DNA of 64,000 nucleotides from Vairimorpha necatrix (lineage: Eukaryota), in assembly GCA_036630325.1 (NCBI GenBank), contig CP142726.1, forward strand, positions 1,054,001 to 1,118,000, in the 5' to 3' direction. Of the stretch, positions 1 through 44,031 are shown one piece after another. A program made the translations under genes and the position numbers. The notes beneath the pieces are model-generated. The model did not search any database. It had not been told where the DNA came from and saw only the letters and a list, made by a program, of their open reading frames with translations. Position 1 is the first letter of the stretch, and each line of letters starts with the position of its first letter.

Positions 1-230
1 AGAACTCCGATTAAAACCTAAATTGATTCTATATACAAACAAGATTTCTTAAAAGGACTTTAAAAAGCCAAACTATGTCAGTCAGACATGGGCTTGATAC
101 TGATCAGGAAGGGGGTTTTGAGAGTTCACTGTGTGGATTTCAAAGGAAACCGGGAACCTTCGGAAAAGATCTTAAGCGTATCTTATGATAATTAAGTAGT
201 AAGTAAGATGCCATATTGTACTCAAATAAA
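1..230 (+). mobile_element. 3' fragment of RLE-type non-LTR retrotransposon (cut by window edge)
   Basis: Aligns by eye to 33730-33960 (gaactccgatta..., caaactatgtcagtcagacat, tgtggatttc...cgggaac), which lies downstream of an RLE endonuclease motif. Confidence 0.7.
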
Positions 231-1516
231 ATATTTTTTTTTATCCGGGCGTATGAACGAAATTTGTATAGCCTTTTGTATAAAAATATCGAAACCTGTT
301 TTAATTCTACATTTATTTCGTATCAATCAATATAAAAAATTTCCGTCGTTAATATTATCAAAAGAATAAAATTCTACATTTTTTTTAGTTGGAATAAAAT
401 TATCACTAGCCAAATAATTCCCTCATTGAACCTTGACATATTTGTCTATCATCAGAAAACCTAGAAATGCAATAAAGGTAAATTATGTTCTAAAATTTTT
501 TGCACACATGTCTTTATAATGCAAAACATACTTATTTGATTAAATTCCAGACAAATATGTGTAATTTTGACATGTTTATATGAATGTTATAAAAAATATG
601 TACTACTTTACCGGTTGAATACTGATTATAAATGTAAAAAAATAAAACATTTTGCAACAGACCATCGCATTTTTTTCAATCATAAAACTTAGGCATTATG
701 ACGACCTAACATGCCACCAGTAGTTAGAAATCTATTTTGTATTTATAAAAAGACTAAATAAAGCTACTTGTACCGGCTTGCTATAAATTAGATCTAGAAA
801 AAAAAAATACCCACAAAACAAATTTACTTTGATACGAAGAGTGAGTTAGAAATGAGATTTATGATTTAAAATAATAATGAATGACACCAAAATTTGTTTA
901 TAGTAAGTTATAGGTTGTACAGATATACTTTTGAACATGTTATAATTTTATTAATTCTTTTTTGAATGTATATGTATAAAAATATGAGATTTTTATGAAT
1001 CAAAAATAAGCTCAAGTCGGGAGAATAGATTGCGCCCTTGAAATATACTACATTATAGGTTTTAAAGTTATTATAAGGGCAAAAAAAGTTCAGATATAAT
1101 TTTTATTAAAATATATAAATTTGATGACCGCAAAAACTTTAATTGTTCCGTACAAATGCTAGAGTTCGTCTGATTATTGAATCTAGACCAGCCGGGTTCA
1201 TACGATTTCTTATCAAAATAATTTTACAAACAAGTCTCCCGCAACTTATACGACAATTAAATTCCAAAGAGTTGCTAACCCTTCTTCTGACTTATAGGCA
1301 TTTCTAACCAATCTAGCCTTCTAAGCTTAATTTTTGCTTCTTAAACTTTTGACTAGAAGGAGCTGAACTTTTGTTCCCTTTACATTGAATTCTAAGCTGT
1401 TAAGATCCATGTACATGCCCCATTTATAATTAATTATAACTGCACTTTACATAATGACAGGAAACACAAAACCGTCGACTTGAAAAATTGCAGTTTGTTT
1501 ATTTGTTGATAATTTA

Positions 1517-2362
1517 TCAATTATTGTACATTTCATTCAACTCTTCATAGATCTCTACAACAAATGATGATTTTATAGCCAAGTGAGTTAAAATACTATA
1601 TATTGAGTTTAGAATTGTTTCTACTTCAGTTTTTATGAAAAAATTTTCATATTTATACAGTATCAACTCGTTTATCATATTTTCCAAAGTTTCTATTATT
1701 GGAATATATTTAAATAGAGAAAATATTTCAATATTGTAATTGTGAATTTTAATTCTATGAGAATTTGGTAATTTATGTTTTGGAAAATTTGCCTTCATAT
1801 CGTAGACTTCAAGAAAAATTTGTAACGTCTTTATAAGTTCATAAATTATATTCTTAATTTCTATAGGAGCTTCGGATTTTATTATCATTTGTATAACATT
1901 TGGCAGTTTTCGTTTATTTATTTGAAACTTATTTTGCTTTTTTATTTCTCTAATTGCTCTGTAATATGCCACTGCACATTCATCGATCCTTGACGGTTTT
2001 ATAAGCTTTGATCTTTTTTTACAATTTGTAAATGATTTTAGTTCCATCACTAAGATAAAATGTTTTATTCTTACTTCACACGCAGCCAAATAATTTTTCA
2101 TCTTTTCAATCGGATATGAAGATTTTGTTGAATCAAATTCTAAAGAAGTGGTTTCTTTTGATTGTTCAAAATCCAAAACATTACAAGAGATTTTTTTTGA
2201 GACATTATTTTTTTTTAGTTCAACATTTGCCTTATAGTAAAATTCATATTGATATGGAAATTCCAATCTGTAATTGCTAATTCTGTTCTCGTATACTGTA
2301 ATATTGGTGCAATCATTTGTAATTAATTGCGCACAATAAATAAAATTAATCGTTACAATCAT
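1517..2362 (-). CDS. Lineage-specific multigene family protein (281 aa), possibly secreted
   Basis: Intact ORF, CCC just upstream of ATG, short hydrophobic N-terminus MIVTINFIYCA, family motif YNIEIFSLFKYIPIIETLE shared with four other loci. Confidence 0.85.
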   Translation of the reverse strand: MIVTINFIYCAQLITNDCTNITVYENRISNYRLEFPYQYEFYYKANVELKKNNVSKKISCNVLDFEQSKETTSLEFDSTKSSYPIEKMKNYLAACEVRIKHFILVMELKSFTNCKKRSKLIKPSRIDECAVAYYRAIREIKKQNKFQINKRKLPNVIQMIIKSEAPIEIKNIIYELIKTLQIFLEVYDMKANFPKHKLPNSHRIKIHNYNIEIFSLFKYIPIIETLENMINELILYKYENFFIKTEVETILNSIYSILTHLAIKSSFVVEIYEELNEMYNN

Positions 2363-3289
2363 TTTATGGGTGCAATTTACAATATTTTAAAAAAGCTGCC
2401 TGGGATAATTTTATTCGCGACTATATGTTGAAAAATAAAGCATTTAAAAAAAAGAAGTAAAAAATTGTAAATATGATAATTTTTATGACTTTTTGCTTAA
2501 AAATTTGAAAGCGTAAATATTTCTCCGTAATTATACCAATTTCATATATTTTATGGCGAAAAAAGTATTTTTCCCATAGATAAAAGAATTTACTTACAAG
2601 AAAAGTACATAATCAATTGTTCAAAATGAGCTGATTAATTAATTACGATTTTTATAAAAATTTTTTAAGTGTTTTTTAGAATAAATTCATTTTTTTGTTT
2701 AAATTTCAAAAATCTCTATAAATAGAAATTGAGTTTTTTTAACAAGTATGCTTTGTATTTAATATTTTTCTCATCTTTTAATTTATATAAAACTAATAAA
2801 TTTTTTTTAAAATAAATTTCAATTGATCGGGGTACCAAAATATCCTATACACTAATAAACTGTGATTTTTGATTTATATACTCAAGGGCATTCAGCATGA
2901 ATCATCTTTTTAAAAAACGTTGACAGCATAATAATTTATGTTGTTATTGTGCATGAGAATTTTAGTGAATTTAAAACCTTTTATTTTATTATCTACAAAA
3001 TTCTTCAAATTGTTTAGCTAAAGCAATATACTAGTTATAAATAAAAAAATGTATCACAAAAATGAAGTGGGTTATAGTTAAAACATTTGCTAATATTCAA
3101 AGGTAAATAATCATTATTTTATTCATTGAATAATAACTTTATTTTGTATTATTTTTAAATGAAGAATTAGCAAATTTTGTGAAATGAACTTAAATTCATT
3201 AAAAATTCCTACTAGCTTTAATTATAAACCTCCGACGTGGAAAAAATATCAATACTGACTATTATACTAATTTACTTATAAATATTTTA

Positions 3290-3530
3290 TGAAATTGTCA
3301 TTTATGAATTTTCTTATGTTTACTTCAACTGCTGCGGACTCTATCCGTTCACAGCACCTTCTAGCCACCTCAACTATATTTACATTCAGATCCTTCCACG
3401 TAAAATTCCTGCCGGTGTTCAAAGGAGATGCTCTCAGTGACTTCTTTATAATTCTCATTTAGATGTAATTTTAGATACAAGTCGAAGGGCTGATGGCATT
3501 AACATAATTGCTGCGGTATGTTGTCACGAT
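3290..3530 (-). mobile_element. Degenerate 3' fragment of RLE-type LINE
   Basis: Minus strand reads NYI*MRIIKKSL / ESISFEHR, similar to AHIQTRVLKMTLESL at ~33755. Confidence 0.5.
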
Positions 3531-6104
3531 TCCGTTTCATGTCATGACGTATGATATTATTTAAAAATTTGATTTGTACATTAGGCCCAATTTAAGATAC
3601 TAATTTATAGTAAAAAAAATTTACATTATATCTACGTTTTAGTTTTTTTTAATTTTATTATAATATAATCATGATTCTGTATCAATTGGAAATAATTTTA
3701 TAAACTTTTTGTCTTATCAAAAAATTAAACTTTTTCACAATATCGGGCCAAATATCTAAATTTAACAGTCGTTATATTTTTTTTGATAAAAATTGTGTGA
3801 AAACATGAATTATAATCTAATATTCATAATATCAAATTATCTGGATAAAATTTATAAAAATATTTATAATCTTAAGGAAATAATTGTCGCGTTTTTAAAT
3901 GCAAATAACCACGATTTTTGTATTTTTCTTTTTTTATATTTCATAAAACTTTCATATATGAAGAAGTGTAAAGTTTTGTAGTCTTTTTAGTTTTATTGAT
4001 ATCAAATACTTTTATTTAATGTATCTAACTAGTGTGCTATAACCTGGGGTATCTAAAGTTTAAATTTATGATAAAAACAATTTGTTTAAGAAATATAATT
4101 TTGAACTTACAATAAAAGAATCAGCGGATGCGTTTGTCTTTTACGTAGATTTAATAATTAAATTGTTGTATGTATACAGTTATAATTAACTTTAATTTTT
4201 TTATACATCATTTAACATCATTAATTACAGATCTAAGCATAGATTAGATATTTATAAAAATTTTAATTTGATTATATAGAATTTTTGTTCGCTTTATGTT
4301 TGAATAAATTAACTCGTATTTGTTTTTAACTATATTTTAATTCTACAATAGTTGTACTTATCTTAAAATTCAAAGAAAAAATAATCTACAATTAGAACTA
4401 GATATATTATCTACACAAACATTGATTTGAAAAAGAAAAATATAAAATTATACAAATTACAATGTAACCCCTCGTAATAATATGCATAGAAAAAAGCATA
4501 ATTGCAATATATAGAAAAGAATGATTTTAGATATAAATTGAATTTACTCAGGATTCAAATTGTTGAAAAATGAAGAAGCCTCTTTGACAATGTTGTACAT
4601 TTCCAGTATACATCATAGGTTTAAATTTCTCTAAGAAAAAGGTTATTATAAATTTGTTTTTTTCGTTTACATTTTTTAGTATGAACCATATTATTAACCT
4701 CTTGTAAAAAATTTATTTTTGCCCAAAAAGTTATAATTTCAAAAATTATAATAGATCATTTTTATATTTTTTGCTTCAAATACAATACCAAACCAAGATT
4801 ACGTTAAGCTAAAATGAAATTCGGGATGTCTTTCAAAGAATTTTTTATTATTTTGAATACAAAATTGTTTAGAATACCAAAAATCAGGATGTCCCAGGAT
4901 TTATCACTTTTTATATTTCAAAGATACTAACAGAGCACAAAATTTACATCTGATCGTTGACTTTTGAAGATCCCTATGAGCAAATCGTAGGAACGCAAGC
5001 GATAAAAATAAAACTAGATGCGAGGTCCAGAAGAGGAAGCATTTAGACAAACTCATCCTCTTTGGTGATTTAAAAGCAATAATTTTAGGACAGAAAGTAG
5101 TAACCTTGACTAATATAATTTGTTCTATATAAATGAGTAACGCAACAAAATAATGATTTTGACTAGAATATTTGAAATACTATTACTTTTGCGTAAAAAA
5201 TACATAAAACATATCAGCGCATGAAGCTATATTACACGTTTTTACCATGCTTATGCAATTTGCTATGTTAACATAAACAAAAAAACAAAACAGCATTCTC
5301 GAAATTAAAATTTAATATCAAAACCCTTTTTCAAATTTTTAAAAACTAGTAGTTTATTATTCAAAGTACATCTTTTTAAACTTATTATAAAATTTAATGA
5401 ACCCATCTGATCTTTTTTTACGTTAATCAATCGCCTTTTTAAGAGTATTTAAAATTATAATTACTTAATGCCAGAGAGAAATATCTCTTTGTGTATATTA
5501 TGCGAAAAATTTGCCATTCTTCGATAGTTTCAATCATTAGTATATGCTTAAACAATGAAAATATTTTGATATTTTAATTATGTTTTTTTATTCTTTGAGT
5601 ATTTGATACGTATCGATTCAATTCCATTTTAACATCAAAAACTGACCGGAAAATTTAAAAAATAGTTATGTATCTTCTAGTCTTGTTCTGACTATCAAAA
5701 TGATTACCCAAACTTGCCACTTATTAATAATCTCCGAAAGAAAATATTTTTAAATATATGTTTCTTAATTTTTGTATTTCAATTAATTCCATCATAATAC
5801 TTCTCAGCATGTTCACTAACCTTTCTACCTTCTTAATTTGTTTTTTCTTGTTGGTATTGATTTAAGTTTCATGACTACGATAAAATCTTTAATTTATTTT
5901 CACATTCAGTTAAATAGTCGATGGTCTCATCTTTTCTGCTGTAAAAAATTTGTAAATTCCCATCTATTGTATGGTTTATGTGTAGAGATGCTGCCTCTAT
6001 ACCACAACAAGAAGGGGGGTAGATTGATATTTTTTTCCTGTTTGTTGTTTATTTTATCTTCAAAGTTATCTTTTATAAAAATCATAGATGTGCAATACAT
6101 CTTA

Positions 6105-8626: not shown

Positions 8627-9917
8627 GGCGCTACTTAAAAATTTGCACCCCCTAAAAAAATACGTTCACTGAAAAAAAAATATTTGGTATAAAATGAGAT
8701 AAAATCAAATTTTAAAGGATTTTTTTCCGGGGGTGCGAATTTTTTGTAAAGGTATTTTGAACGTGAAATTTTTTTATTTTATCTATCCCTTATAATGAAC
8801 AGGATGATGGACGAAATGCTTCAATTCAATCCATCAATCCTATTTTCACTGATAATGACAGGGCAATCGACTACGGATTGAAGAACAACTTGTTCTATCC
8901 TTGTATTCCCCGTACTAATGATCAGTGCAAAGGAATTATGTTTATTCAAAACATATCTTTGTTTTCTTAAGGAAAGGGGTACAAATGTAGCAAAAAAATT
9001 TGTAAACGAAGATGTTCATAAAATAAAGGTTCTAAATTTAAATCTTTAGATATTGAATTTAAAAAAAATTCTTCGTTGCATTTATTGTTGGTGTTTGTCA
9101 TATACTAATTTTCAGGCTATCAACATGTGTGAAACTTCTGAACCAACATATATTTCTGTAAAAGAAATAATAATGGAAACAATTTCCAAGTCTTCTACTG
9201 TTGTTACAACGATAGGTGGAGTTGGTCAGAGGATAAAAATAGACGAAACAGCTATTTGTAATGGAATTATAAAATCGAATCCGTCTAGTCGATTGGATTC
9301 TGAACTTGGAATTCAGTGGATAATAGGAGGTGTATTGAAAGGAAATTGTAGAGAGTTTTTTGTGGAACTAATACCCGATAGAAAATGGGAAACGATTTTA
9401 CTAATATTAAAAAAATATGTAAAAGTAGGCGCGGATATAGTAACTGATGGTTATCCATCCTATCCACGTGCTATAGGTAAATTTGGTTCTCACCATAGTG
9501 TGGTAAATCACTCTATGGGATTTTGTAATGAAGAAGGACAAAATACAAATTATGTAGAAAATATGTGGTCGCATCTTAAGCATGATTATAGAAAGAGTGG
9601 AGGAATTAATAAAATAAGAATTAAATGTTGGTTAGATGAGTTCAAATAGCAAAAAAAATATAGAATATTCAAAACCATTTACAATCAAATTAGCCTTCGT
9701 AAAAATAATTGATATTTTTTCTATGTTAAAGTAATTAAATTTTTGAACTAAATAATATGTTATAACTGTTTTTTTAAATATTTAAACTTTTGTAAATTCA
9801 TATTTTCATAAAAATATTGTTTTAAATATAATTTTAAGGGTTAAAAATATTTTTTTTTATATAAATTAATTGGTCAATGTAATTTTTTTTAGGGGGTGCG
9901 AATTTTTAAGTAGCGCC
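8627..9917 (+). mobile_element. Merlin (IS1016/IS1595-like) DNA transposon, family A
   Basis: ~34-bp TIRs GGCGCTACTTAAAAATT(T/C)GCACCCCCTAAAAAAAA; perfect 8-bp TSD GATACTCC at 8619-8626 and 9918-9925; DDE transposase inside. Confidence 0.95.
8795..9649 (+). pseudogene. Disrupted Merlin DDE transposase
   Basis: CCC-preceded ATG at 8795, then stops/frameshifts; ORF 9053-9649 has IDET, VTDGYPSY, VNHS, NTNYVENMWS motifs. Confidence 0.85.
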
Positions 9918-12790
9918 GATACTCCAAAATTTTTTGCAATGAAAAAGTGAAATCCTCTCTTTATGATATGCGAATGGTACATTGAGTTCTTCATTCGATT
10001 TTATGTCGTTAAAATGAGCTGTTCCAAAAATTATTTTTTTAAGCATTATGATCTCGACATTGAAAATTATAAAAGCTTTTCAAATTTGTTCCTATATTTT
10101 ATATTTATAATTATAATTTAAGCCTCAGGAATTAAAGGCGTATTTTTTACCTATCAAAATAAGTAAACAAAAAATCCAAGATAAGAGCAAAATGATAATG
10201 TTTAAGATTAATTATAACGTTGCTAATGTTCGGGGATTTTAAAAGGCTGGCGAAATATTATATTAACATCATTATTAAGACAATTATCATAATGTATTGC
10301 TTTTTCACATATATATATATATATAAGCATGAATAACTCATTGAGAACGGCATAAATAATGGAATAGATTTTATATTAAATATATCTCGTTAAAATTTTC
10401 CCTTTAATATTAGTTATACGCGGTAGTAATTACCTTTCTCGAAAGATCAATCCTTCAGAAGCAACATATATTTTTTTTTGTTTTTTCTTATCATATTAGA
10501 CTATTTATTATATCGCCATCTGAAAGACTATTTTAATTTGAGTTTACTATATCATTGTGATTAGATTTGTGATACCTGTATATTATTTTTTATATTATAC
10601 CAATATAATACTTTTCTTGTAAATCACAAAAAAACAAGTTTGTTTTTAATATCGATACCAGTATATTTTTAACAGTTCTTAACTCTTTGTATAATTTTAA
10701 GATTCGCCTTTGGTTTCGATATGCTTTATTTTTATCATAAATATTCTTTTCTAATTTTATTTTTTTTCGCAAAGTCAAAGGAAATTAATGTTTTAAAAGA
10801 AATTTTATACATCTTTTAATGTCTTAAAATATATAAAAAAGTTGATACAATTATTATATATAACGATTTTCTTTGTATAGTTTTTTTTTAATTTTGGTTT
10901 ATAGTTTTATGGGGGTTCTTCCTGTTGCTGTATGTTCGCAACATTTTTCTTTTTTTTGAGGAATTTTTGAAAATTTTCTTTTATACTTATGCGGTCTATC
11001 CCATTAACTATACAACGTCGCGTTGGTGTATAATTACACTTAAAACAACGAAGTCGATAACGTATTAAATTTTATAATCTTCACATTATTCTTTTTTTTA
11101 GATAAGAAACTATATCATTATTTATTGTATATCTAAACGAACTATTTATAATTTTTATGTCTTATTTGAATCTTGATGAAAAATTTTATAATTTCCTTTT
11201 TATTATATTCAATATCATTTGTACTTTAATTTGAATAAACTTATTTTTTTAGTCATATAAAATAAGCTCTTTATCATTTTTTCCACTTTTATTATTGATA
11301 AATATAGTTTAAAGGCAAAATTGTTCTAAATTTGTAGTTATATATATATTAATTTTGTTTGTGTTTGATTTGTCATGTGCTGATAAGTTTCATTGTAAAT
11401 CATAACCTTAATAGAAGAAAAATTCATAGTTTATAAATTTTATAATTTTGTCTTTAATTTCTGTACAATCATTTGGATATTCTACTTTCTATATTTTATG
11501 AAGTTGTATGTAAGTTAAAATATGCAAATCATTTTCCTTATATTTTTTATCTGTCTAGTAAATATTTTTATATGATCGTCGTCTATTACATTATGTCTGT
11601 CTGTTATCGTCGTTTAACTTTGTGCATTGAATTTCGGTCCCATTATCAATTTAAGGTGTTTATAATGTTTTCATATGTAGATAAATACTTTTATTTACAT
11701 TCATTTAATTTTGTCCAATTGTGAATTATATTTAAACGCAGAGATCTGTGAGGGTGTTCCCGTTTTTTACAACATTTTATGGTAATTGTTTGAAAACCAT
11801 TTTGTTTTTCTGTCTTTTTGTATTAAAACTGAAAGCTTTCATGTGAAAAAAATAGAAAGTAATTATTATTTTTAAAATCATATACGTCGTCACTTTCCTT
11901 TTCATTTTTTTTTGCTGTGACCACAAAAATAGTCGTATAAATTATTACAAGACAAAAAGATATTTATTACATGGGATTATGCTATATTTTAATTAGTTTC
12001 TAGATGAAATAGAAGAAAACTAGATATCAGTTCTTAAGGTTCTAGTAAAAAATACATAAGTTATCGATTTTTTAGCCAGCTGGAACCAGCAAATCAAAAC
12101 AAAAAAAAATATGACTTATTTTAGCAGTATTGCATTTAATATTCATTCATATCAAGATTTTAAATATTTCTTTAAAAAAAACCATTATTTTTATAACGTT
12201 CTATCTTTGACATATTAAGAGTAAAATGGCCATCGTGGAAGTTAAAAACAATTAATATAAACTATGTTAATTAACACAAAAAGATCAAAGATTATATATA
12301 AGAGTTTTATATTGCGTTATGTACACGCAACAACAATAATTTTAAGTAACAACCATGTTAACAAAATTTACAATATAATCGCAGACAATATTGTAATAAG
12401 CAGAAGGCGGACAACGGAATGTCCCTACAATCACATCTAGATATTATATTAACCATTTTGTATATGGTGTACACATAAGTGCATTTTAGTTAAGACAAAA
12501 GGGAAGCAGAAAAACTTTTTGGATTAAATGTGGACCAGATACACAAACATAAAAAAAATAGAACTCCTACAATAGACATAAATTTGGCTAATACCTTTAA
12601 TACTATTATTTTTGAAGATACGTTCTTATAGATTTTTTTAGTATTATAAATTTTTTGTCTAAAGTTTTGGCATTTAATTTTATTTTGTTTAATAGACGGT
12701 ATTTAGTGAAAAATTCAGCATTAAGGTTTGATATTCATTATGGGTCAAAGTGCATCAATTCGTAGTTTTTTTATTTTTGATCATATAAAA

Positions 12791-12839
12791 TGTGATATAT
12801 TTGTATAATTTCTATCCCCCATTATTATAAATAAAGACA
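12791..12839 (+). repeat. 5' LTR (49 bp)
   Basis: TGTGATATATTTGTATAATTTCTATCCCCCATTATTATAAATAAAGACA; direct repeat of 15960-16008. Confidence 0.92.
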
Positions 12840-13102
12840 TGGGGGCGATACCGAATCGTCAGTTTACAAGTGTGGACTGTGGTCTAAAGGCCAAAAAGTT
12901 ATTAAAGGAAGTCAGAAGAATAATGTATAGGTTGGAGATGGAGGAATTAGAAATCAGTTTGTGGAAGCAGAGAATATTTATGGAAGGAAGTGAAGAAATA
13001 AAAAATTTTATGGTAGAAAGAATTAGTAAAGAGGACGAATATTATAAAATAATTGAGAAATTAGAGGAGGAAATATGTAGAGAAGAAAGAACTAAAAAAT
13101 AA
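12839..13102 (+). CDS. Gag N-terminal ORF of the Gypsy element (87 aa)
   Basis: ATG overlaps the LTR end and PBS; CCCCC ~19 nt upstream; a -1 shift in the A-run at 13094-13099 would join it to the long ORF. Confidence 0.65.
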   Translation: MGAIPNRQFTSVDCGLKAKKLLKEVRRIMYRLEMEELEISLWKQRIFMEGSEEIKNFMVERISKEDEYYKIIEKLEEEICREERTKK

Positions 13103-13125
13103 GAAGAAAAAATAGGAGCGAACTT

Positions 13126-15597
13126 ATGGAGGGCATAGCTGAGAATGTTAGAGAAACTGTGAGAAAAGAAATTCAAGAGAAAGATTTAGTTTTAAGGAGT
13201 ACAGTACAAGAAATAAGAAATAATAGGAATTGTTTTAATTGTGGTAAATTTGGCCATATGGCTAGGAACTGCTATGTAGGAAGGAACAATAATCAGGAAA
13301 ATAATAAAAAGTTTAATAAGTACTTAAATTTAGACGAAAACCAAAGTTGTAGTAGCAGTAATGATAATAAAGAATATAAACCAAGTGGAAAGACAAAACG
13401 AGTTAAGTTAAAGGAATGTAATAATAGTGATAGAAGACATAAAGAAAGAATATATGCGAGCAATAAAGAGACGAAAAGAAGATTACTGAAGAGGGAATTT
13501 ACGTTGGAAGATCTCAAAGCGGAATATGAAGAAGTTTTTAAACAAGGAGATGAGGTTATAAGTTATTGTACATTAGAAAAGTGTAAGATAGATACTCCAG
13601 AGGGTAAGAAGATAGTCAGAAAGGGACAGACGATCCCACAGGCTTTGATCAAACAGACTGAGGAATATATTAATGATTTAGAAAATAGAAAAATTATAAG
13701 AAGATCGTCTTCGGAATGGCGAAACCCAATAAGAGCGATACTTAAACCAAGTGGTGAAGTAAGAATAGTTAGTAATTTTATAGGATTGAATGATTTAGTC
13801 GAGAAAGACCCGTATGAGCTAACGAATATGAGAGAAATAATAAGAGCTACGCAAGGGTCGATAATATTTACCGTTGTTGATTGCAAAGAAGCATTTTACC
13901 ATTTTGAAATCGAAGAAAAAGATAAACATAAGACGGCGTTTGAATTTAATAAAAAAGTTTACGAATGGAATAGTATGGTGATGGGATACAAAAATTCCCC
14001 ACAGATACTACAGAGAACGATGAATATGATTTTTGAAGATTTGCGAGGAAATGGTGTTGAGGTATACATGGACGATATAGTAATACATGCCAACAATAAA
14101 CGTAAACACGATGAATTAGTAATAGAGGTTTTAGAAAGAATTAAGAGAAATAAAATGAAATTAAATATTGGGAAAATACAGTTTAGACAAGCGGAAGTAA
14201 AATTATTAGGTGTGACGCTGAATGGAATAGACATGACGGCCGACGAAATAAAGAAAAATGTCGCCTTGGAGTATCCGGATCCAAAAACTTTGACGGAATT
14301 GAGGAGGTTTCTAGGATTGACTGGATGGTTCAGACCATTTATAAAAGATTATGCCGGGCTGACGTTGAAAATGACAGATAGTTTGAAGAAAAATGGCAAT
14401 TCGTGGAAATTTACGGAAGAGATGAAAGAGGAATTTACTAAAATGAAAAATGTGTTAAGAAATATGGGAAGACTAAGATTACCGGACTATAATAAGGAGT
14501 TCATACTAAGAACAGACGCTAGCAATTTGAGATTGGGTGCGGTGTTACTTCAGAAGAATGAGAATGGGGAATGTGTTGCTATACAATGGGCATTTAAAAA
14601 GCTAACACCTACCGAAATAAGATATGGAATATCAGAAAAGGAAATGCTTGCGATATATTGGGGCATTGATAAATTTAAATACGAGTTAAGAGGTAGGAAA
14701 TTCAAGATAGAAACGGATCACAAAGCACTGGTGGAGATAAGAAATAAACCGTTTTTCAATAATAACAGAATAAATCGTTTAATCGAGAAGATACAGGAAT
14801 ATGATTTTATCGTTGAATATAAAAAACCTGATGAGATGGTGGTAGCAGATGCGTTGAGTCGAATAAATATGGAAGAGGATATTAAAGAAATGAAAAATAA
14901 AGAGCGAACAATCAAGCAAACAGAAGGTAAATGGAAAGCACATGTTTCTTCCGAGAATGGAAAGCAATATTGGCAATTTGACTCAGGACGTAAAGTTGAA
15001 ATACCACCTGAGAATATAAGGAGACAATTAATCCAAGAATATCATGAAAAAGTAGGCCACAGATGCATGACAAGTGTTTATTATGCAATGAGAGAAGAAT
15101 ACTATTGGCCAGGAGTAAAGAAAGAAATGAACGAGGTTATAAAACAGTGTCAGAAATGTCAGATATATAACAGGAAAAATATGGGTGGTTGTGAATTTGT
15201 AGATACGTCGAGATATTTAGAGAAGGTTGCATTAGATTTGATAGACTTTAGAAATGAAAAGAAATATGTTTTAGTTGCTATCGATTATTTTACACGTAGA
15301 GTATGGGGAGTAGTTATAAATAACAAGTCAAGTAATAATGTTGTTGGATTTTTGAAAAGATTATGTGAGCAAGGGAAGAAACCAGAAGAAATTATTACAG
15401 ATAACGGGAAAGACTTTATTAACTTGGAATTTAGAAAATTTTGTAGAGATCTCGATATAATACACCGACAAGTAAGTATAGAAGCGCATAGAAGTAACGG
15501 AAGAGTAGAGCGTGTTTTAGATACTCAGAGAGAAAATATTATAAAGTCGGATGCGGAAACTTTTGAAGGTAAAAAGTATAAAAGTATCGATATATAA
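13126..15597 (+). CDS. Gag zinc knuckle - RT - RNase H - integrase polyprotein; C-terminus frameshifted and continuing to ~15937
   Basis: CFNCGKFGHMARNC knuckle; YMDD; TDAS, EKEMLA, TDHKAL; HHCC zinc finger; ALD..., TDNG, SNGRVER; YNQNYHTGIKCTP continues in another frame (15551-15763). Confidence 0.93.
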   Translation: MEGIAENVRETVRKEIQEKDLVLRSTVQEIRNNRNCFNCGKFGHMARNCYVGRNNNQENNKKFNKYLNLDENQSCSSSNDNKEYKPSGKTKRVKLKECNNSDRRHKERIYASNKETKRRLLKREFTLEDLKAEYEEVFKQGDEVISYCTLEKCKIDTPEGKKIVRKGQTIPQALIKQTEEYINDLENRKIIRRSSSEWRNPIRAILKPSGEVRIVSNFIGLNDLVEKDPYELTNMREIIRATQGSIIFTVVDCKEAFYHFEIEEKDKHKTAFEFNKKVYEWNSMVMGYKNSPQILQRTMNMIFEDLRGNGVEVYMDDIVIHANNKRKHDELVIEVLERIKRNKMKLNIGKIQFRQAEVKLLGVTLNGIDMTADEIKKNVALEYPDPKTLTELRRFLGLTGWFRPFIKDYAGLTLKMTDSLKKNGNSWKFTEEMKEEFTKMKNVLRNMGRLRLPDYNKEFILRTDASNLRLGAVLLQKNENGECVAIQWAFKKLTPTEIRYGISEKEMLAIYWGIDKFKYELRGRKFKIETDHKALVEIRNKPFFNNNRINRLIEKIQEYDFIVEYKKPDEMVVADALSRINMEEDIKEMKNKERTIKQTEGKWKAHVSSENGKQYWQFDSGRKVEIPPENIRRQLIQEYHEKVGHRCMTSVYYAMREEYYWPGVKKEMNEVIKQCQKCQIYNRKNMGGCEFVDTSRYLEKVALDLIDFRNEKKYVLVAIDYFTRRVWGVVINNKSSNNVVGFLKRLCEQGKKPEEIITDNGKDFINLEFRKFCRDLDIIHRQVSIEAHRSNGRVERVLDTQRENIIKSDAETFEGKKYKSIDI

Positions 15598-15959
15598 TCA
15601 GAACTATCATACAGGAATAAAATGTACACCAATAGAAGCGACTGAAGATAAAACTGGAGACGTAATGCTTGAAAATAGCCCTATAGGGAAATATTGTAAT
15701 AGGTTTGGAAAAGGAAAGATCGAAAAATGTAGTAAAGGTCAATTGGTAAGAATAGCTAAATGAGAAAATTTGGCAGGTGTTAATAAGTATGAAAAAGGAA
15801 GATTTTTGGATACAGGAAAAATTGTTGAAAAGTGTGGAAAAGATTCTTATATTGTAAAACTTAGTAATGGTAGGCTTGTGAAGAAGAGACATTATGATCT
15901 GAAGGGTATGCTTGGGGTAGATGTGAAAATTAGATGAGACTAACCGTCTTGAGGGGGGA

Positions 15960-16008
15960 TGTGATATATTTGTATAATTTTTATCCCCCATTATGATAAA
16001 TAAAGACA
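15960..16008 (+). repeat. 3' LTR (49 bp)
   Basis: Follows the PPT directly; ends CA then TSD TAAAA. Confidence 0.92.
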
Positions 16009-16069
16009 TAAAATATAAATTAAATATAAATTTTACGTTTTTTTACGAATCCCCCCCAATCAAAATGTT

Positions 16070-16400
16070 AAGTCGAGAAAGTATGGTGTCCTTGCTAACG
16101 TACTGGATACAAATGTCGTTTTAAAAAACGAAAATAATTACTTACATAATCAATTGGGAGGTATATTGAACTAAGTTCCTCAAAACTTTAAATCCCTAAA
16201 AAGGTAGCAGCGTACATCCAGATGATCACGTTGAAGAAGACGCCAGAAAACATTTCTCTAAAATACCGAACTAGAGGATACGAAATAGATTTGAGAACTA
16301 AGGAGCCTAGAAGCTACGTTAAAGCAGGAGACGCCAACGCGGAACTTATCCTTGTTGTACTAGATATAAAAACTACATTAGACATACCCTGATTAAATTA
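16070..16400 (+). mobile_element. Degenerate 3' fragment of RLE-type LINE
   Basis: Reads KSRKYGVLAN ... VAAYIQMITLKKTPENIS, matching KYDLLAN ... EAHIQTRVLKMTLES of the 33.6-kb fragment. Confidence 0.65.
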
Positions 16401-16959: not shown

Positions 16960-17811
16960 TTATTTATACAAGTACAGCTGCTTTAACTTTTCATAATTTT
17001 CTATTGCGTGTTCTGATCTTGTTTTTAATTTACGTAATTTAGTTTCTAATAAAATTAAAATTTCATTTACTACATACCTAAAGCAAAATTTTTCGTAGGC
17101 ATACAGCCTCAATTCAGTTTTCATTTTTTCCAAAGTTTTTATTATTGGTATATTGTTAAATATAGAAAATAATTCTACATTGTAATTAATGATTTTTATT
17201 CTATAATTGTTTGATGAAGTAACGGTTAAAAATCTTCTTTTCATTTTGTAAATTGAGATAAAATTGTCAAAAAGATTTAAAAATTTGAAAATTATGTTTT
17301 CAATTTCTATAGGGACATTCACAGACTTTATTTTTTGTTCAATAATGGGCAATTGTTTCATCTTCAAATCATATATGTTATCCATTGTTTTTTCTATATT
17401 TTTTATACAAAGACATTTATATTTTTCATTTGTTTTCACAATATTAGATTTTTTTAAAGTTTTATCTTTTTTTAGATTTCGTTTACGTTTCATCTCATTC
17501 TCAAACTTTTTCATTTTATGTTTACAATCAGATATATATTTTTCGATTACATTTATTAAACTTGATAAAGTTTGTGAATTATTTTCTGATGTAAAGTTTT
17601 CTTTGGACTGTTCCATGTTTATATCATCACAGTTATGTTGTTTTAATTCTCGAATGCTTTCTTCCAATTCATCATATGGTCTATATTGAAAGTTTTCATG
17701 AAAAGAAATTACAGATATGTATTTTATATCTCTATTTCCATATGCTCTTCTTATTATGCATTCATTTGTAGTGAAATGAGCGCATGAAATAAATTTTAGT
17801 ATATTAATCAT
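16960..17811 (-). CDS. Lineage-specific multigene family protein (283 aa)
   Basis: MINILKFISCA N-terminus, YRPYDELE and YNVELFSIFNNIPIIKTLE motifs, CCC upstream. Confidence 0.88.
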   Translation of the reverse strand: MINILKFISCAHFTTNECIIRRAYGNRDIKYISVISFHENFQYRPYDELEESIRELKQHNCDDINMEQSKENFTSENNSQTLSSLINVIEKYISDCKHKMKKFENEMKRKRNLKKDKTLKKSNIVKTNEKYKCLCIKNIEKTMDNIYDLKMKQLPIIEQKIKSVNVPIEIENIIFKFLNLFDNFISIYKMKRRFLTVTSSNNYRIKIINYNVELFSIFNNIPIIKTLEKMKTELRLYAYEKFCFRYVVNEILILLETKLRKLKTRSEHAIENYEKLKQLYLYK

Positions 17812-21878: not shown

Positions 21879-22712
21879 TTATTGTAAAAAATCCGATCTA
21901 AGTTTCAAAAGACGTACAACTTCGTCTGATTTTATTAATAATATATCTAACTTAGCCTTTAATGAATCAAAAATTTTTATAATTTCCCACCAGATGTTTA
22001 TATTTGTGTATTCATATAATTCTAATTTCTTTTTCATTATTTCTAAAGTTTCTATTAATGGGATATGCTTGAATAGGGAAAATATTTCAATATTGTAATT
22101 GCAAATTTTTATTCTATATTCATTTGATGAATGTGGTATTAATATTTCCTTTTCCATATTATAAATTAATAAAAAAGAATATATAAGATTTATAAATTCT
22201 AAAAGCAAGTTCTTGATTTCAATAGGTCCATTTAAAGCCCCTATTTCAACTGTAATTTGAGGCAATTGTTCATTTCTTAAATCATATATAATTTTTATTG
22301 TTTCTTCAGTATTATTTTTGTATCGATTTAAAACATATTCATCTGGCTTTTCAATGTTTATATCTGTTTCATTTAACTGCGATGACCACGTTTTCATCTT
22401 ATTTTCGTACTCTTCTATTTTTTTTCTACATTCTAATATATATTTTTCAATATCTATACTCAAATATGGGAGCGATACTGAAATATATTCACATGTAGAA
22501 ATTTCTTGTGGCACTTCCTTCACTATTTCATACCATAACGGTTGGTTTATATCTTCAACATCCTTTTCCAATTCAAAATATGGTTTATACTTTTTTTCTT
22601 TATTGGATATAATCGATATGTATTTAATATCTTCATTCCCATAATAACTTCTAATTATACTTTCATCTGTATTAAAATGAGCACAATTAATAAAATTCAG
22701 TGTTAATATCAT
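21879..22712 (-). CDS. Lineage-specific multigene family protein (277 aa)
   Basis: MILTLNFINCA, YKPYFELE, YNIEIFSLFKHIPLIETLE; CCCC upstream. Confidence 0.88.
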   Translation of the reverse strand: MILTLNFINCAHFNTDESIIRSYYGNEDIKYISIISNKEKKYKPYFELEKDVEDINQPLWYEIVKEVPQEISTCEYISVSLPYLSIDIEKYILECRKKIEEYENKMKTWSSQLNETDINIEKPDEYVLNRYKNNTEETIKIIYDLRNEQLPQITVEIGALNGPIEIKNLLLEFINLIYSFLLIYNMEKEILIPHSSNEYRIKICNYNIEIFSLFKHIPLIETLEIMKKKLELYEYTNINIWWEIIKIFDSLKAKLDILLIKSDEVVRLLKLRSDFLQ

Positions 22713-26223: not shown

Positions 26224-27042
26224 TTAACTTTTAGTATTTTTTATAACTTCTTCTGATTTTATTGATAATATGGTTAATATATTTTTTAATGATTTAAAAA
26301 GTGCATTTACTGTATAGTGAGTGTCGACGTCCGTGTATACATAACCTTCTAATTTATTTTCCATTTTTTTCAAGGTTTCTATTATTGGTATATGCTTAAA
26401 TGCAGAAAAAATTTCTATTTTGTATTTATGGATATTTATTTCTTTCTCGTTTGATGAATTAGTGGATACTGTTGCTCTTTTTATATCAAAAATAGATAAA
26501 AATGAATAACAAAGATTCATAAATTTTATAAATACGTTTTTAATTTCATCAGATTCCAATGAATTCTCTATAGATTTAGTGATTTCGATCAAATGTTTAT
26601 TTCTTGCAGTATAAAAAAGTATCAATATATCTCGTATACTATATTCGTATTGATTTTCACAATAATCAACAAATTTCTCAATATTTGAATCAGTTTGTTT
26701 TATTGGCTCTATTCCTGTTTCCATATTATTTTTATACTCTTCTATTTTCTTTTTACATCCGATTATATCTTCTTCAATATCAATAAGCAGATCGGCAAAA
26801 TAAATCAAGTTACTTTCCATTGTGGATGTTCCGTGTGTTGGTTCTGCTTCCTTTTCGTACCATGGTCGGAGATTTATCTTTTTAGTACTTTTTTCCAATT
26901 CATCATATGGTCTAAATCCCAATTCATCTTGATCAGATACTACTGATATGTATCTCACATCTTTATTTCCGTAAAAATTTCTTATTATATTTTCATTTGT
27001 AATGTAATCGGCACAATAAATTAAATAAAATGTCAATATCAT
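26224..27042 (-). CDS. Lineage-specific multigene family protein (272 aa)
   Basis: MILTFYLIYCA, FRPYDELE, YKIEIFSAFKHIPIIETLK; CCC upstream. Confidence 0.88.
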   Translation of the reverse strand: MILTFYLIYCADYITNENIIRNFYGNKDVRYISVVSDQDELGFRPYDELEKSTKKINLRPWYEKEAEPTHGTSTMESNLIYFADLLIDIEEDIIGCKKKIEEYKNNMETGIEPIKQTDSNIEKFVDYCENQYEYSIRDILILFYTARNKHLIEITKSIENSLESDEIKNVFIKFMNLCYSFLSIFDIKRATVSTNSSNEKEINIHKYKIEIFSAFKHIPIIETLKKMENKLEGYVYTDVDTHYTVNALFKSLKNILTILSIKSEEVIKNTKS

Positions 27043-28036: not shown

Positions 28037-28899
28037 TTAGAATGAATTTTTTAAAATATCATATATTTGATTTAACTTTTCATAATTTTTTATAACTTTT
28101 TCTGATTCTATTGCTAAAAGATCTAATGTAGCTTTTAATGAATCTAAGGTTTTCATTATGTTCAATATAATGTTTTTGTCATTATATTTATATGATTCTA
28201 TTTTATTTGTCATTTTTTCTAGAGTTTCTATTATTGGTATATGCTTAAATAGCGAAAATATTTCAATATTGTAATCATTGAGTAACATTTTATATCCGTT
28301 TGACTGATTTAGAGTTGATCACCTTTTGTTCATATTATAAATCGATAGAAAAGAACAAAAAAGATCCATAAATGCTTCGAAAATGTTCTTTATTACTTCA
28401 AGCTCCCTCAGAGCATCTATATTTCCCATAATTACCGGCAATGTTCCTTTTTTAAATCATATATTTTTTGAATTTTTTTGTGTGTATCTTCTTCTGTACA
28501 ATTTATACAAAATTCCTCTATTGTTTTAGATTTTTTAATTTTTAAATTTTCTTTCTTTATCATCTTTGATTTCATTTTCAGTATATCTTTGTATTCTTTT
28601 ATTATCCTTTTACAATAAAAGATATCTTTTTTAATAAGAAAAATTGGATTCGATGAAGATTTTGATTTATGTTCTACTGTAGAATTTGCTTGTTGTGGTT
28701 CTACTTCCATTTCGATACATGTCAGTTGATTTAATATTTCGAAACTATTTTCCAATTCATCATATGGCCTAAATTCAGATTTATCATGTGAAGAAATTAT
28801 GAATTTGTATCTTATATCTCTATTTCCATGAACCCTTCTTGTTATGTGTTCATCCGTGTTGTAATGAGCACAAAAGATAAATTTTAGTATTAAAATCAT
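28037..28899 (-). pseudogene. Frameshifted member of the same family
   Basis: N-half 28432-28899 (FRPYDELE) and C-part 28037-28288 (YNIEIFSLFKHIPIIETLE) separated by frameshifts near 28440 and 28315. Confidence 0.85.
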
Positions 28900-29018: not shown

Positions 29019-30038
29019 GGCTAAAGTTAGCTTTAGCTGACAAAAATGCATATTGGGTTTTTTTTCTTTTTTTTGCCCCTTTTTAAAAAAATGGAGGAGA
29101 CAATATGACCAGAGCAGAAATGGAAACAGTCTATAATATTTTATTTGACAAAAAAAAGAATCAGTTATGCAAAGTGTGTAATGGTAGAATGAGGTTGCTT
29201 AGTAAACAGGGCCCTATGTTAAAATGTACTTGGAAGGACTGTAAGAAGACAGTTTCTATGTGGAAAGGTACATTCTTTAAAAACTTGAGACTTGATCATA
29301 TCAAAATTTTACAGGTACTTAATTTGTGGATTCTAGGCTATCCTCGTAAGTATATTAGCCAAATTTTATGTTGTTCAAAACCTTCAATATCGTTTATTTT
29401 TAAAAAATTAAAGGAAATAGACATTTATGATAAATATTTATCATCTTTGGGAAAGATAGGCGGGGAAGATATTATAGTAGAAATAGATGAAACAAAAATA
29501 GGAAAAAATAAGTATAATAGAGGTAAACTAGTGAAAGGGTTTTGGTGTTTTGGAATGATAGAGCGTTCTTTAAAACGAACTATAATAATTACTTATATTA
29601 AAAAAAGAGATACAAAAACACTTACAGACCTTTTATTAAAATATGTGAGCACGGAAAGCACTATATACAGCGATATGTGGAGGGCTTGCCGTTCCTTGGG
29701 TAATGATTTCAAACAACAAACATGGTCAACCATTCATTACACTTTCGAGATCCTAATACTGGGGTTCATACCAATGCCATAGAAGGTAATTGGAGATCAC
29801 TCAAAAATTCTATACCTAATCGAAATAGGTCTGCAAATGGTGCCAAACTTTATTTGTTTAGGTATATGCTTCGAAGAAATGCATCTAATTCTGTTTTTGA
29901 TGCATTATTAAATTTATTGTTCTAATTTTTGTTTTTGTTCCTTCCTTAACATTTTCCTTCTTCCATTTTTTTAAAAAGGGGCAAAAAAAAGAAAAAAAAC
30001 CCAATATGCATTTTTGTCAGCTAAAGCTAACTTTAGCC
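29019..30038 (+). mobile_element. Merlin DNA transposon, family B, copy 1
   Basis: ~78-bp TIRs starting GGCTAAAGTTAGCTTTAGCTGACAAAAATGC; 8-bp TSD AAAAATCG at 29011-29018 and 30039-30046. Confidence 0.95.
29105..29925 (+). pseudogene. Merlin transposase with a frameshift near 29720
   Basis: N-terminal Cys motifs, VEIDETKIGKNKYNRG, IYSDMWRA, then VNHS...GVHTNAIEGNW in a second frame. Confidence 0.9.
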
Positions 30039-40836: not shown

Positions 40837-41050
40837 ACTATTTGTTTTTTTAAAGCTTACAGCTTTACATATTAAATGTTAATCGTTCTATAAAGATTTT
40901 TTTTATAAGCATTAAATATTATATCTTTTTTATTAATTTTAAAGCTTTATCATTTTGAATTTTAGATTAAATTAGCAAATTTTTAATTACAAAAAAAAAT
41001 TGTAAAAATTTTTTTTTACAAATAAATTTATAAAAATCATTATTTAAGCT

Positions 41051-41881: not shown

Positions 41882-42085
41882 ATGGGACGAAAATAAAAAA
41901 TATTTATAAAATAAATTTATTCAAGGAGCTACTTTCCTATATCTCATTTTACTCCAGTTTTTTCTTCTGTTTATTCGACTTTTATTTCATCTAAGTTTGT
42001 TTATTGTCAAGCACAAATCCAAAAAGATTAGTGAATAATTCGCTAATCTATAGCTGCTAGAAAAAGAATTTTACAGTATAAAAAG

Positions 42086-42119
42086 ATTTTCTTTATTTAT
42101 GCGCATAAATAAAGAAAAT
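42086..42119. repeat. Perfect 34-bp palindrome
   Basis: ATTTTCTTTATTTATGC|GCATAAATAAAGAAAAT. Confidence 0.9.
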
Positions 42120-42207
42120 TATTACACCAATATTGTTCTCTAAATAATTAATATTACCATAAAGATCTATCATCTTAATATAATGAAATCTATTCAAACA
42201 TAATCTT

Positions 42208-42271
42208 TACATTCTTTTTTTACATTCTTTTTTACATTCTTTTTTTTACATTCTTTTTTACATTCTTTTTT
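42208..42271. repeat. Five tandem TACATTC(T)n units upstream of PNO1
   Basis: Direct reading of the sequence. Confidence 0.85.
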
Positions 42272-42280
42272 GACTCCTTA

Positions 42281-43940: not shown

Positions 43941-44031
43941 AAAATCTCTAAATTAATTTTTAACGAATTTTTGTTAAATTTTATAGTAAATACAAAAAGA
44001 AACTTTTTTATTTTTTATATAAATAGCTTTA

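Follow-up and report, generated by a model that had tools for sequence, protein, structure and literature searches.

A protease-less lineage of microsporidian Ty3/gypsy retrotransposons with terminal repeats of about 50 bp

Analysis of a 64-kb stretch of the Vairimorpha necatrix genome (the window) identified a Ty3/gypsy retrotransposon of 3,218 bp that integrated by the normal route and later decayed. Comparison with related proteins and loci places it in a lineage of microsporidian elements of ~3.1 to 3.2 kb with long terminal repeats (LTRs) of 38 to 50 bp and one open reading frame (ORF) of ~1,000 amino acids (aa); the aspartic protease appears to have been lost once in this lineage, with reverse transcriptase (RT), RNase H, and integrase staying intact. 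We hold the identification of the element and the lineage-wide loss of protease, taken together, to be highly probable. The whole of our best explanation, which joins to these a scheme of transcription and of replication as a passenger, has in our estimate a probability of about 0.5. The short LTR had already been tabulated in 2014; the loss of protease is the larger surprise, and it was overlooked in the initial annotation of this sequence, as were the shortening of Gag and the defects of this copy. The features of the V. necatrix copy, in window positions, are as follows.

12786..12790, + strand: left target-site duplication TAAAA (sequence comparison)
12791..12839, + strand: 5' LTR, 49 bp, TG..CA, with an AT tract and then CCCCC at 12816-12820
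12839..12841, + strand: predicted Met codon across the junction of LTR (one base) and primer-binding site (two bases), from the N-terminal pattern of family proteins
12839..13102, + strand: Gag remnant, one four-helix capsid-like lobe, probably N-terminal (AF2), stopping at the first frame break
12840..12857, + strand: primer-binding site (PBS), starting with TGG directly after the LTR and doubling as the first Gag codons; 3' limit putative
13231..13272, + strand: CCHC zinc knuckle (nucleocapsid; Pfam zf-CCHC, E 2e-4)
13273..13500 (approximate), + strand: charged linker, predicted disordered, in the usual place of the aspartic protease; no protease (pLDDT, profile)
13738..14220, + strand: RT core (Pfam RVT_1, E 9e-30), YMDD intact (14065)
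14485..14802, + strand: RNase H (Pfam RT_RNaseH, E 1.5e-27)
15004..15468, + strand: integrase zinc-binding and core domains (Pfam Integrase_H2C2, rve)
15545..15937, + strand: C-terminal part of integrase in another frame, interrupted by a stop at 15761-15763 (tblastn with intact relatives)
15936..15949, + strand: conserved GAGAC-N(3-5)-GTCT motif just upstream of the polypurine tract (related loci)
15951..15959, + strand: polypurine tract (PPT), abutting the 3' LTR
15960..16008, + strand: 3' LTR, 49 bp, with CCCCC at 15985-15989, in-frame ATG at 15993-15995, and AATAAA at 15999-16004
16009..16013, + strand: right target-site duplication TAAAA

The marks of normal-route integration are the LTR pair, the PBS, the PPT, and the 5-bp duplication; assignment to Ty3/gypsy follows from the TG..CA direct terminal repeats with target duplication, the positions of PBS and PPT, and the order RT-RNase H-integrase with a gypsy-type RT. 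The initial annotation had already reported the 49-bp repeats, the TAAAA duplication, the TGG-initial PBS, and the abutting PPT, and each was found where it had been placed. The LTRs are identical at 47 of 49 positions, with mismatches at LTR positions 22 and 36 (BLASTN within the window, E 9e-18); both copies carry CCCCC at positions 26-30 and AATAAA at 40-45, and the 5' copy lacks ATG at 12824-12826, the position of the LTR-internal start codon. A 5-bp match at the local composition would arise by chance with a probability of ~0.003. The exact repeat is 51 bp (A-TG..CA-T), and the same letters can be parsed as 49 bp with a 5-bp duplication or as 51 bp with a 3-bp duplication; the former is the canonical parse, and the LTR is ~50 bp under both. 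The 64-kb window held no second copy or solo LTR and no tRNA gene to match against the PBS.

The repeats could in principle be leftovers of longer LTRs, or the element an ordinary gypsy copy internally deleted at one locus, as might be suspected from its decay (two LTR mismatches and three coding lesions) and from the deleted variants that seem to be present in runs X1 and X2. Against this, other flanks occur at the same ends: among the 16 of 96 loose ends listed, two contigs of run X2 part from the window ahead of 15959 and another two beyond 16012. PBS or PPT and the duplication abut both repeats, and outside them identity falls to 10/50 upstream and 17/50 downstream, so the LTRs are not pieces of longer ones. 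Size and layout also recur in four related loci and in Anncaliia algerae, and intact relatives align over the whole length with no extra domain. We therefore consider such an origin very improbable, and already refuted barring longer-LTR copies of the same family elsewhere in the genome; the earlier view that these are not truncated LTRs is borne out by the four abutting marks, by flanks dissimilar beyond the duplication, and by relatives with LTRs of 38 to 49 bp.

The description of the element as "complete" holds for its structural boundaries and fails for its coding capacity, which is marred by two frame breaks and a premature stop and includes no protease. Frame breaks fall near 13100 and around 15580-15600, with the in-frame stop at 15761-15763; intact relatives are single ORFs of ~1,000 to 1,050 aa, of which the V. 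necatrix copy is the same frame broken twice, and searching it with them (tblastn) returns three pieces. Absence of pol coding of the TRIM type is not the case here: RT, RNase H, and integrase are present with catalytic motifs, the third integrase catalytic residue lying in a VERV motif at 15505. Linker residues 63-130 of the window's 833-aa frame have pLDDT values below 50 in a structure prediction made for that frame without the Gag lobe, which was predicted separately. Viral contigs gave weak integrase-core matches only (15 loci, E ~1e-4).

Throughout the lineage the ORF runs short Gag, zinc knuckle, RT, RNase H, and integrase, with no protease between. A protease profile built from 27 sequences found no match at E<=10 in 56 of the 59 family proteins and at most 8.8 bits in the other three, whereas the protease-bearing controls L097, L010, and L016 scored 22 to 36 bits. 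Among the 25 of 53 Pfam families listed for 27 aligned members, no gag-pol aspartic-protease or capsid family appeared, barring a weak Peptidase_A17 match in two members (best E 0.047). The distance from knuckle to RT is 97 to 154 aa in 41 of 44 members versus 204 to 295 aa in 21 controls, a comparison that leaves aside 12 control rows near 700 aa, where the anchor lies in a later domain. In a first tree, 58 of 59 rows form one clade (SH-like 99). A second, quick tree without bootstrap, from which 108 of 145 new proteins were excluded as longer than 1,450 aa, gave a 29-row protease-less clade (SH-aLRT 88) with protease-bearing rows as its sister; P0203 is counted among the latter, where it falls and where its D[ST]G motif at 261 places it, its automatic label having been protease-less. 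Most aligned members share 41 to 60% identity.

The short LTR is likewise a trait of the lineage, permitted by the compact promoters of the host. Related loci L017, L099, L100, and L096 have LTRs of 49, 47, 46, and 38 bp, each measured on one LTR bounded by PPT or PBS, with L099 and L100 cross-validating. In the window, CCC occurs no more than 30 nt from the ATG in 16 of 21 host ORFs, compared with 9% in background, and the CCCCC of the LTR ends 4 nt before an in-frame ATG. The LTR mimics a host gene start (AT tract, CCC, ATG), which bears out the earlier suggestion that it uses the host's minimal promoter grammar. Among family proteins with an upstream Met, 20 of 21 have Y, H, D, or N directly before M-A/G, as expected where an LTR ending in ..AC A runs into a PBS beginning TG G.

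The last ~16 LTR bases and the primer site are coding, and AATAAA at 40-45 therefore lies inside the coding sequence for the N-terminal peptide, with just 4 nt left before the LTR stops. In five of six related loci, and in retro L of A. algerae, the hexamer stands upstream of the last CCC run, opposite to the V. necatrix LTR. Its proposed role as poly(A) signal is not supported by this layout. Folded as RNA, neither the LTR by itself (z +0.16) nor the 5' end (z -1.6) was unusually stable.

Similar LTRs are on record. Table S1 of Parisot et al. 2014 (PMC4202319) gives a complete 3,127-bp element of A. algerae with a 50-bp LTR, Aalg retro L (Microsporidia Group 1), and another element with a 45-bp LTR, so LTR length cannot count as novel; in the 23-Mb A. 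algerae genome, 46 of the 50 complete families have LTRs of at least 100 bp. An LTR of equal size in that genome, together with the lack of any listed LTR family for the most reduced genomes (Encephalitozoon), speaks against the idea of a miniaturisation matching host genome reduction. The main text of PMC4202319 contains neither "protease" nor "PBS" and does not discuss LTR size. Our literature search, which stopped short of Xu et al. 2006 and of Repbase/Dfam, found no description of protease-less or ~50-bp-LTR microsporidian elements.

By eye, retro L seems to belong to the same lineage as the V. necatrix element. Its printed consensus has one ORF (32-3049) starting in the LTR after the CCC, with Met at the LTR/PBS junction, RT close behind the knuckle, and an identical 17-nt motif ahead of its PPT; it differs in LTR sequence, in having AATAAA before rather than after the CCC, in PBS, and in host order (PMC4202319). 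For Group 1 (retro L, Nbr5, Nant_A/F, and Nbom_C), the likeness thus concerns retro L's N terminus, LTR layout, and pre-PPT motif, judged on a consensus outside our trees; the Group 1 trait of a single Gag-Pol ORF is present in the intact relatives. Nbr5 is printed beside retro L in the Fig. S1 text (PMC4202319). The Nbr elements of Nosema bombycis (Xu et al. 2006) are likewise single-polyprotein microsporidian Ty3/gypsy elements, but "nearly all" are said in PMC2474625 to encode Gag, protease, RT, RNase H, and integrase, unlike the lineage described here.

A further comparison is offered by protease-bearing short-LTR sisters (L010 and L097; P0140, P0141, and P0165), which also have a single ORF starting at the LTR/PBS junction; the LTRs of L010 and L097 are 66 and 58 bp, with AATAAA and then CCC. 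Unlike our lineage, these sisters have retained both a DTG protease and a Gag of two lobes, and the GAGAC..GTCT motif is missing from them. The Gag remnant of the V. necatrix copy is modeled as four helices (AF2 pLDDT 86), and a check for a two-domain capsid found ~90 aa of folded domain, then a long helix, then the knuckle. Its top fold matches are weak and comprise capsid lobes of Arc, RSV, and Ty1 (best Z 6.0, versus 5.8 for unrelated helical bundles); these structural matches are C-lobes or CTDs, not NTDs. In a profile comparison, this domain matched the N-terminal half of sister Gags at E 0.0025 (weak, probability 12%) and the second half at E 0.54. Foldseek with the remnant returned nothing at E<=0.001, the ESM Atlas gave Gag-family leads that were all sub-0.9, and single-sequence profile comparisons with L097, L010, and P0049 were not significant (E 0.21 to 0.66). 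The C-terminal capsid lobe was probably lost, on this weaker evidence, later than the protease.

We propose that a U3 of ~30 bp would comprise the integrase end, the AT tract, and the CCC, and that RNA would start no more than a few bases from the CCC, like that of host genes; the U3/R/U5 limits are those that we infer from the layout. Translation would begin at the LTR-internal ATG or at the one spanning the LTR/PBS junction, which would make R-U5 (~16 to 22 nt) and the PBS coding and leave a minus-strand strong-stop DNA of only ~20 nt. The 3' end of the RNA would need only to reach into or beyond the 3' LTR. The product may act as a Gag-Pol-like passenger: its N-terminal capsid lobe would let it join the particles that protease-bearing sisters in the same genome assemble, the zinc knuckle would bring in the element's own RNA, and the helper's protease would cut the disordered linker, freeing RT and integrase.

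Passenger replication in sister particles is the likeliest mechanism that we infer, and we advance it tentatively. A single ORF yields Gag and Pol at 1:1, and in Ty3 the CTD links capsomers and the shell needs 540 CA (PMC6525542); a lobe-less protein made at that ratio would hence be a poor shell builder. A. algerae also carries longer families, and a DTG protease motif is present in the consensus that precedes retro L in print; for N. ceranae a different family is given (PMC4202319). Our search for a helper in Vairimorpha with the protease-bearing sister L097 returned three proteins, none named from Vairimorpha. The age and diversity of the lineage would demand a lasting fit with helpers whose capsids and proteases diverge, a point in favour of autonomy.

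Autonomy, as a doubtful but serious rival, would mean an uncut polyprotein with no proteolytic maturation and no closed two-lobe capsid, in which a single protein performs reverse transcription and integration, binds its own RNA in cis via the knuckle, and oligomerizes via the helical lobe and the coiled coil behind it. Full-length open ORFs of ~1,000 to 1,050 aa are found repeatedly, in many different lineages, and every catalytic column of RT, RNase H, and integrase is conserved in them; a cluster containing V. ceranae has 31 members, nine of the 15 listed being 1,014 to 1,019 aa; protease loss happened once and was never reversed; and the long flexible linker would allow tethered domains to act. 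DIRS elements and hepadnaviruses function without a protease, but protease mutants of Ty1, Ty3, and retroviruses fail to transpose, and the oligomeric state that RT needs is not the one that integrase needs. Stated in full, as an autonomous phylum-wide clade with no protease and no two-lobe capsid, whose one uncut ~1,000-aa protein is paired with LTRs of ~50 bp (down to 38 bp) and a coding R-U5 and primer site, this account is unlikely; if true, it would describe the minimal LTR retroelement that still works, pared down in steps with the protease going before the capsid lobe, and would contradict the view that capsid, protease, and RT are the defining core of the virus order. The early-branching protease-less P0146 and P0049 keep a longer Gag, which fits autonomous and helper-dependent replication equally and is not decisive.

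It is improbable that an otherwise self-sufficient element has its polyprotein matured at the disordered linker by a host protease, such as the proteasome or an aspartic protease of the Ddi1 type. Ddi1 has a retroviral-type protease fold, and an exposed low-confidence linker of 60 to 70 aa does occupy the former protease site, but that linker shows no conserved sequence in the alignment and no similar one is evident between RNase H and integrase.

TRIM, SMART, and TR-GAG elements are small, have short LTRs, and may depend on helpers; they have lost pol and keep nothing or only Gag, whereas in this lineage RT, RNase H, and integrase remain and the protease is gone along with part of Gag. The Metaviridae element Ty3 of Saccharomyces cerevisiae, whose 340-bp LTR is several times longer, shares the RT-RNase H-integrase order, CCHC knuckle, TG..CA LTRs, PBS/PPT priming, and 5-bp duplication. 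Unlike the V. necatrix lineage, it encodes GAG and POL in separate frames and has a protease and a capsid of two domains, with a CTD that links capsomers (PMC6525542). The lineage raises the question of how little an LTR element needs to copy itself: it would set a natural lower bound for LTR size at 38 to 50 bp, implying strong-stop DNA of ~20 nt, and suggests how such small LTRs work, by copying the host's minimal gene start and overlapping the ORF. It also makes testable either maturation without polyprotein cleavage or a new parasitism on other retrotransposons, in which pol is kept and protease and shell are borrowed.

The 17 nt before the PPT are identical, by eye, in retro L, and GAGAC-N(3-5)-GTCT may form a small stem-loop or another cis signal. 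The hairpin was not chosen in the MFE fold (z +0.67), and its four pairs are invariant in four sequences and so give no covariation evidence; we retain it as a motif only. A second tRNA-binding site was dropped as an explanation because the spacer length varies. In the right flank, an ORF at 16192-16392 had no match in the ESM Atlas.

Common LTR finders would, as the initial annotation expected, miss this element: LTRharvest defaults to a minimum LTR length of 100 and a seed of 30 (PMC2253517, Table 1), and the longest exact match between the V. necatrix LTR copies is 21 nt. Because such elements escape default searches, microsporidian repeat content is probably under-annotated and the ORFs mis-named in databases. 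ORFs of this lineage carry such wrong names as "krab-a domain-containing protein" and "endonuclease."

A Pfam scan of the element, a 3.2-kb Ty3/gypsy retrotransposon at 12786..16013, matched knuckle, RT, RNase H, and integrase and found neither protease nor capsid; no protease family annotation occurs among its best 58 homologues, which measure 482-1,188 aa; those of full length mostly have 1,000-1,050 aa and lie on ~3.0-3.4-kb contigs. A profile of 27 gypsy proteases left 56 of 59 family proteins without a match, and the other three reached at most 8.8 bits (two matches lay in the integrase tail), compared with 22-36 bits for the protease-bearing controls L097, L010, and L016, on a profile that missed 3 of 35 held-out non-family proteins and gave many low scores. 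The distance from the knuckle to a fixed RT position was 97-154 aa in 41 of 44 family members (180, 181, and 241 aa in the rest) and 204-295 aa in controls (n=21; 12 mis-anchored controls excluded), and AlphaFold predicted residues 63-130 of the element's main frame to be disordered. In these sequences the room for a protease is missing too.

The protease-less proteins are related by descent: in an RT-RNase H tree that retained 21 of 62 non-family rows, 58 of 59 family rows formed one clade (SH-like 99), and in a quick tree with more sisters, 26 protease-less and 3 truncated rows did so (SH-aLRT 88), adjoining a protease-bearing clade that includes L010. The core clade of protease-less rows holds 25 rows (support 98). 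The earliest branches, P0146 and P0049, lack the protease and keep a longer Gag; in P0146 the Q..E...F..R motif at the start of the second lobe is clear. Core-clade Gag consists of about 90 folded residues, then a long helix and the knuckle. Four helices are predicted for the element's Gag piece (pLDDT 86), whose fold matches, all barely above unrelated bundles, were the Arc C-lobe at the top (Z 6.0, rmsd 2.7 over 64 residues), the Arc CTD at ranks 3 and 8, the RSV CTD at ranks 13-14, and, first in Foldseek, the Ty1 CTD (E 4). Against sister Gags, a profile of the piece matched in the first half (E 0.0025) and gave no match in the second (E 0.54). With moderate confidence we take the piece for a lone N-terminal lobe, and we take the losses to have been stepwise, the protease going first and the second capsid lobe later.

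Reverse transcription and integration would follow the Ty3/gypsy route, since the integration and priming marks are canonical and that route is well established. A Gag-Pol passenger normally co-assembles with Gag, and the family's fusion protein resembles such a passenger. In Ty3, the capsid NTD makes capsomers and the CTD joins them, with 540 copies per shell (PMC6525542); compared with this CTD-linked shell, a 1:1 Gag-Pol fusion without a CTD would be a poor shell builder. For these reasons we rank first, at a probability of roughly 0.45, a mechanism in which the family protein would hitch-hike in particles of its protease-bearing sisters as putative helpers. Against this mechanism, a search with the protease-bearing sister L097 showed no helper in this genome, and the age of the lineage argues for independence. 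An autonomous element with an uncut protein, ranked second, is a possible though less favored reading; host proteolysis, ranked third, seems improbable. Neither lineage-wide protease loss nor a coding R-U5/PBS was found in the literature searched, the reach of which stops short of Xu et al. 2006 and the repeat databases.

The element is a real feature, and its location and boundary marks are as the initial annotation had placed them: the two LTRs differ at positions 22 and 36 only, TAAAA abuts both (chance about 0.003), TGG lies directly 3' of the first LTR, and a 9-nt purine tract lies directly 5' of the second. Beyond the repeats, identity is only 10/50 and 17/50, so the LTRs are whole, as had been claimed, and not truncated longer ones. 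The description of the element as complete holds for its structure but not for this copy, which is defective: intact relatives aligned with it by tblastn in three pieces, and two frame breaks and a stop interrupt it.

Features of the window copy
12791-12839, 5' LTR, 49 bp, TG..CA
15960-16008, 3' LTR, 49 bp, TG..CA
near 13100, frame break (tblastn with intact relatives)
near 15580-15600, frame break (tblastn with intact relatives)
15761-15763, stop codon interrupting the element ORF

Both LTR copies have an A just before them and a T just after, which makes the exact repeat 51 bp and moves the element ends by at most 1 base. A T after the 3' LTR occurs in the window (16009), L017, L096, L100, and run X2 contigs, and an A before the 5' LTR in the window (12790), L099, and the consensus of retro L, an Anncaliia algerae element; this pattern could come from a preference for T-NNN-A targets, or the ends could be the 51-bp A-TG..CA-T, in which case the duplication is 3 bp. 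The window is AT-rich (GC 23-34% per 2 kb), and the closest named relatives of the element are in Vairimorpha apis, where the match is 80% across 58% of the query, and in V. necatrix and Nosema granulosis; we class the host as a Vairimorpha-like microsporidian.

Short LTRs are general in the family. Among 100 loci retrieved, four family loci each show a single LTR bounded by PPT or PBS.

LTRs of family loci
L017, 49 bp, resting on one end and the motif pattern
L099, 47 bp, 5' copy
L100, 46 bp, 3' copy
L096, 38 bp, resting on one end and the motif pattern

The L099 and L100 ends are confirmed because these 5' and 3' copies nearly agree, one substitution and one gap apart. In sequencing run X2, among the 16 loose ends listed of 96, at least two contigs part from the window just 5' of 15959 and at least two just 3' of 16012, as other insertion sites would be expected to give. 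The protease-bearing sisters L010 and L097 have LTRs of 66 and 58 bp. The family is not alone in having very short LTRs: that of L016 (958-1011), an unrelated-looking 4.7-kb protease-bearing gypsy element outside the clade, is about 54 bp. In A. algerae, Table S1 of PMC4202319 gives 50 complete families a median LTR of 191 (range 45-272; 4 below 100 bp), and lists retro L with an LTR of 50 bp, ORF 32-3049, and a total of 3,127 bp; a short LTR was therefore already on record in 2014. By eye, the retro L consensus shares with the window element its type of N-terminus, a short knuckle-to-RT span, and 17 identical nt before the PPT (PMC4202319). In the main text of that report, as available, "protease" and "PBS" do not occur and LTR size is unmentioned in its passages; LTR length is thus tabulated in print yet undiscussed in the literature searched. 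The prediction that common LTR finders would miss the element agrees with the LTRharvest defaults (minlenltr 100, seed 30; PMC2253517 Table 1), both of which it fails.

The LTR also reads as a host-like gene start. In microsporidian genes, a CCC-like motif sits immediately 5' of the start codon with an A/T-rich stretch ahead, and E. cuniculi 5' UTRs are <7 nt (PMC2803860). In 16 of 21 window host ORFs a CCC run lies within 30 nt of the ATG, and in 15 of these 16 it ends at -2 to -9; the background is 9%, whether taken from random positions or from all ATGs. Of 26 long ORFs, 5 were excluded as transposon or antisense frames, and one of the ORFs without a run is 13 nt from the window end. The LTR, with its AT tract and CCCCC at 26-30, follows this minimal promoter grammar, as initially proposed, and continues with ATG at 34-36, which the 3' LTR of the window has and the 5' LTR of this copy lacks. 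Five codons and then a second Met follow, the latter made of the final LTR base plus the TG that opens the PBS. M-A/G stands near the start in 30 of the 36 family proteins with a complete-looking N-terminus; 21 have an earlier Met, 5 or 6 residues upstream in 14, and in 20/21 M-A/G comes directly after Y, H, D, or N, residues with codons able to end in AC. This ATG inside the LTR is in frame in the 3' LTR of the window, in L096, L099, and L010, and in retro L; the single copies of L017 and L100 have it out of frame, and L097 has none. From this layout we infer a U3 of about 30 bp; R-U5, at about 16-22 nt, is probably coding, as is the PBS.

The AATAAA noted at LTR positions 40-45 is present, within Ile-Asn-Lys codons and 4 nt from the LTR end; since cleavage generally occurs about 20 nt downstream in eukaryotes (PMC2803860), the cut is predicted in the flank, unlike the picture first drawn, in a manner compatible with strand transfer. 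AATAAA precedes the last CCC run in L017, L100, L010, L097, and retro L, and is placed in L099 as in L100; among the compared loci and retro L, only L096 resembles the window's arrangement. The suggestion that the small LTR matches host genome reduction is supported only as an indirect link: A. algerae, with a genome of 23 Mb, carries an LTR of ~50 bp beside 46 families with LTRs of at least 100 bp (PMC4202319), and the smallest genomes have no LTR families listed. Compact host promoters permit a small LTR; genome size is no predictor.

A GAGAC-N(3-5)-GTCT motif lies directly 5' of the PPT in the window (15936-15949), L096 (2699-2722), L100 (1530-1551), and L017 (about 3200); its conservation reaches from Vairimorpha-like hosts as far as Anncaliia, with 17 nt identical. 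The motif is absent in the protease-bearing L010 and L097, and is a candidate packaging or priming signal. Between its integrase and PPT, L010 has an additional frame of ~190 aa (3338-3913). Contigs L096, L097, and L098-L100, of microsporidian retrotransposon type, lie inside Clostridium sp. and Turicibacter sp. genome bins, probably through contamination of the bins. Summed contig depth in run X2 is about 40,000-50,000 at 12844-13190 and 15802-15975 and 44-575 across most of the element's middle; this may point to a derivative that has lost internal sequence and been highly amplified, or to an artefact of the library. A low-depth contig of run X1 joins the 3' LTR (16006) back to the PBS (12842), as would be seen with a one-LTR circle, a tandem copy, or an assembly path running across the repeat, and another omits 466 and 684 bases (14744-15211; 15251-15936).

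The right flank (16051-16392) has a host-type CCCCCC..ATG start ~55 bp past the element, its reading frame is broken, and an Atlas search with it gave no match; it is probably another repeat, being deep in run X2 with loose ends of its own. ORFs at 9125-9649 and 29105-29782 resemble, by eye against the Merlin consensus, pieces of Merlin/IS1595-type transposase. A dispersed ORF family (~270-280 aa, one 155 aa) gave no significant Pfam match for the one member scanned; its members share similar hydrophobic N-termini and are probably secreted proteins.

Dispersed ORF family
1517-2362, minus strand
16960-17811, minus strand
21879-22712, minus strand
26224-27042, minus strand
28432-28899, minus strand
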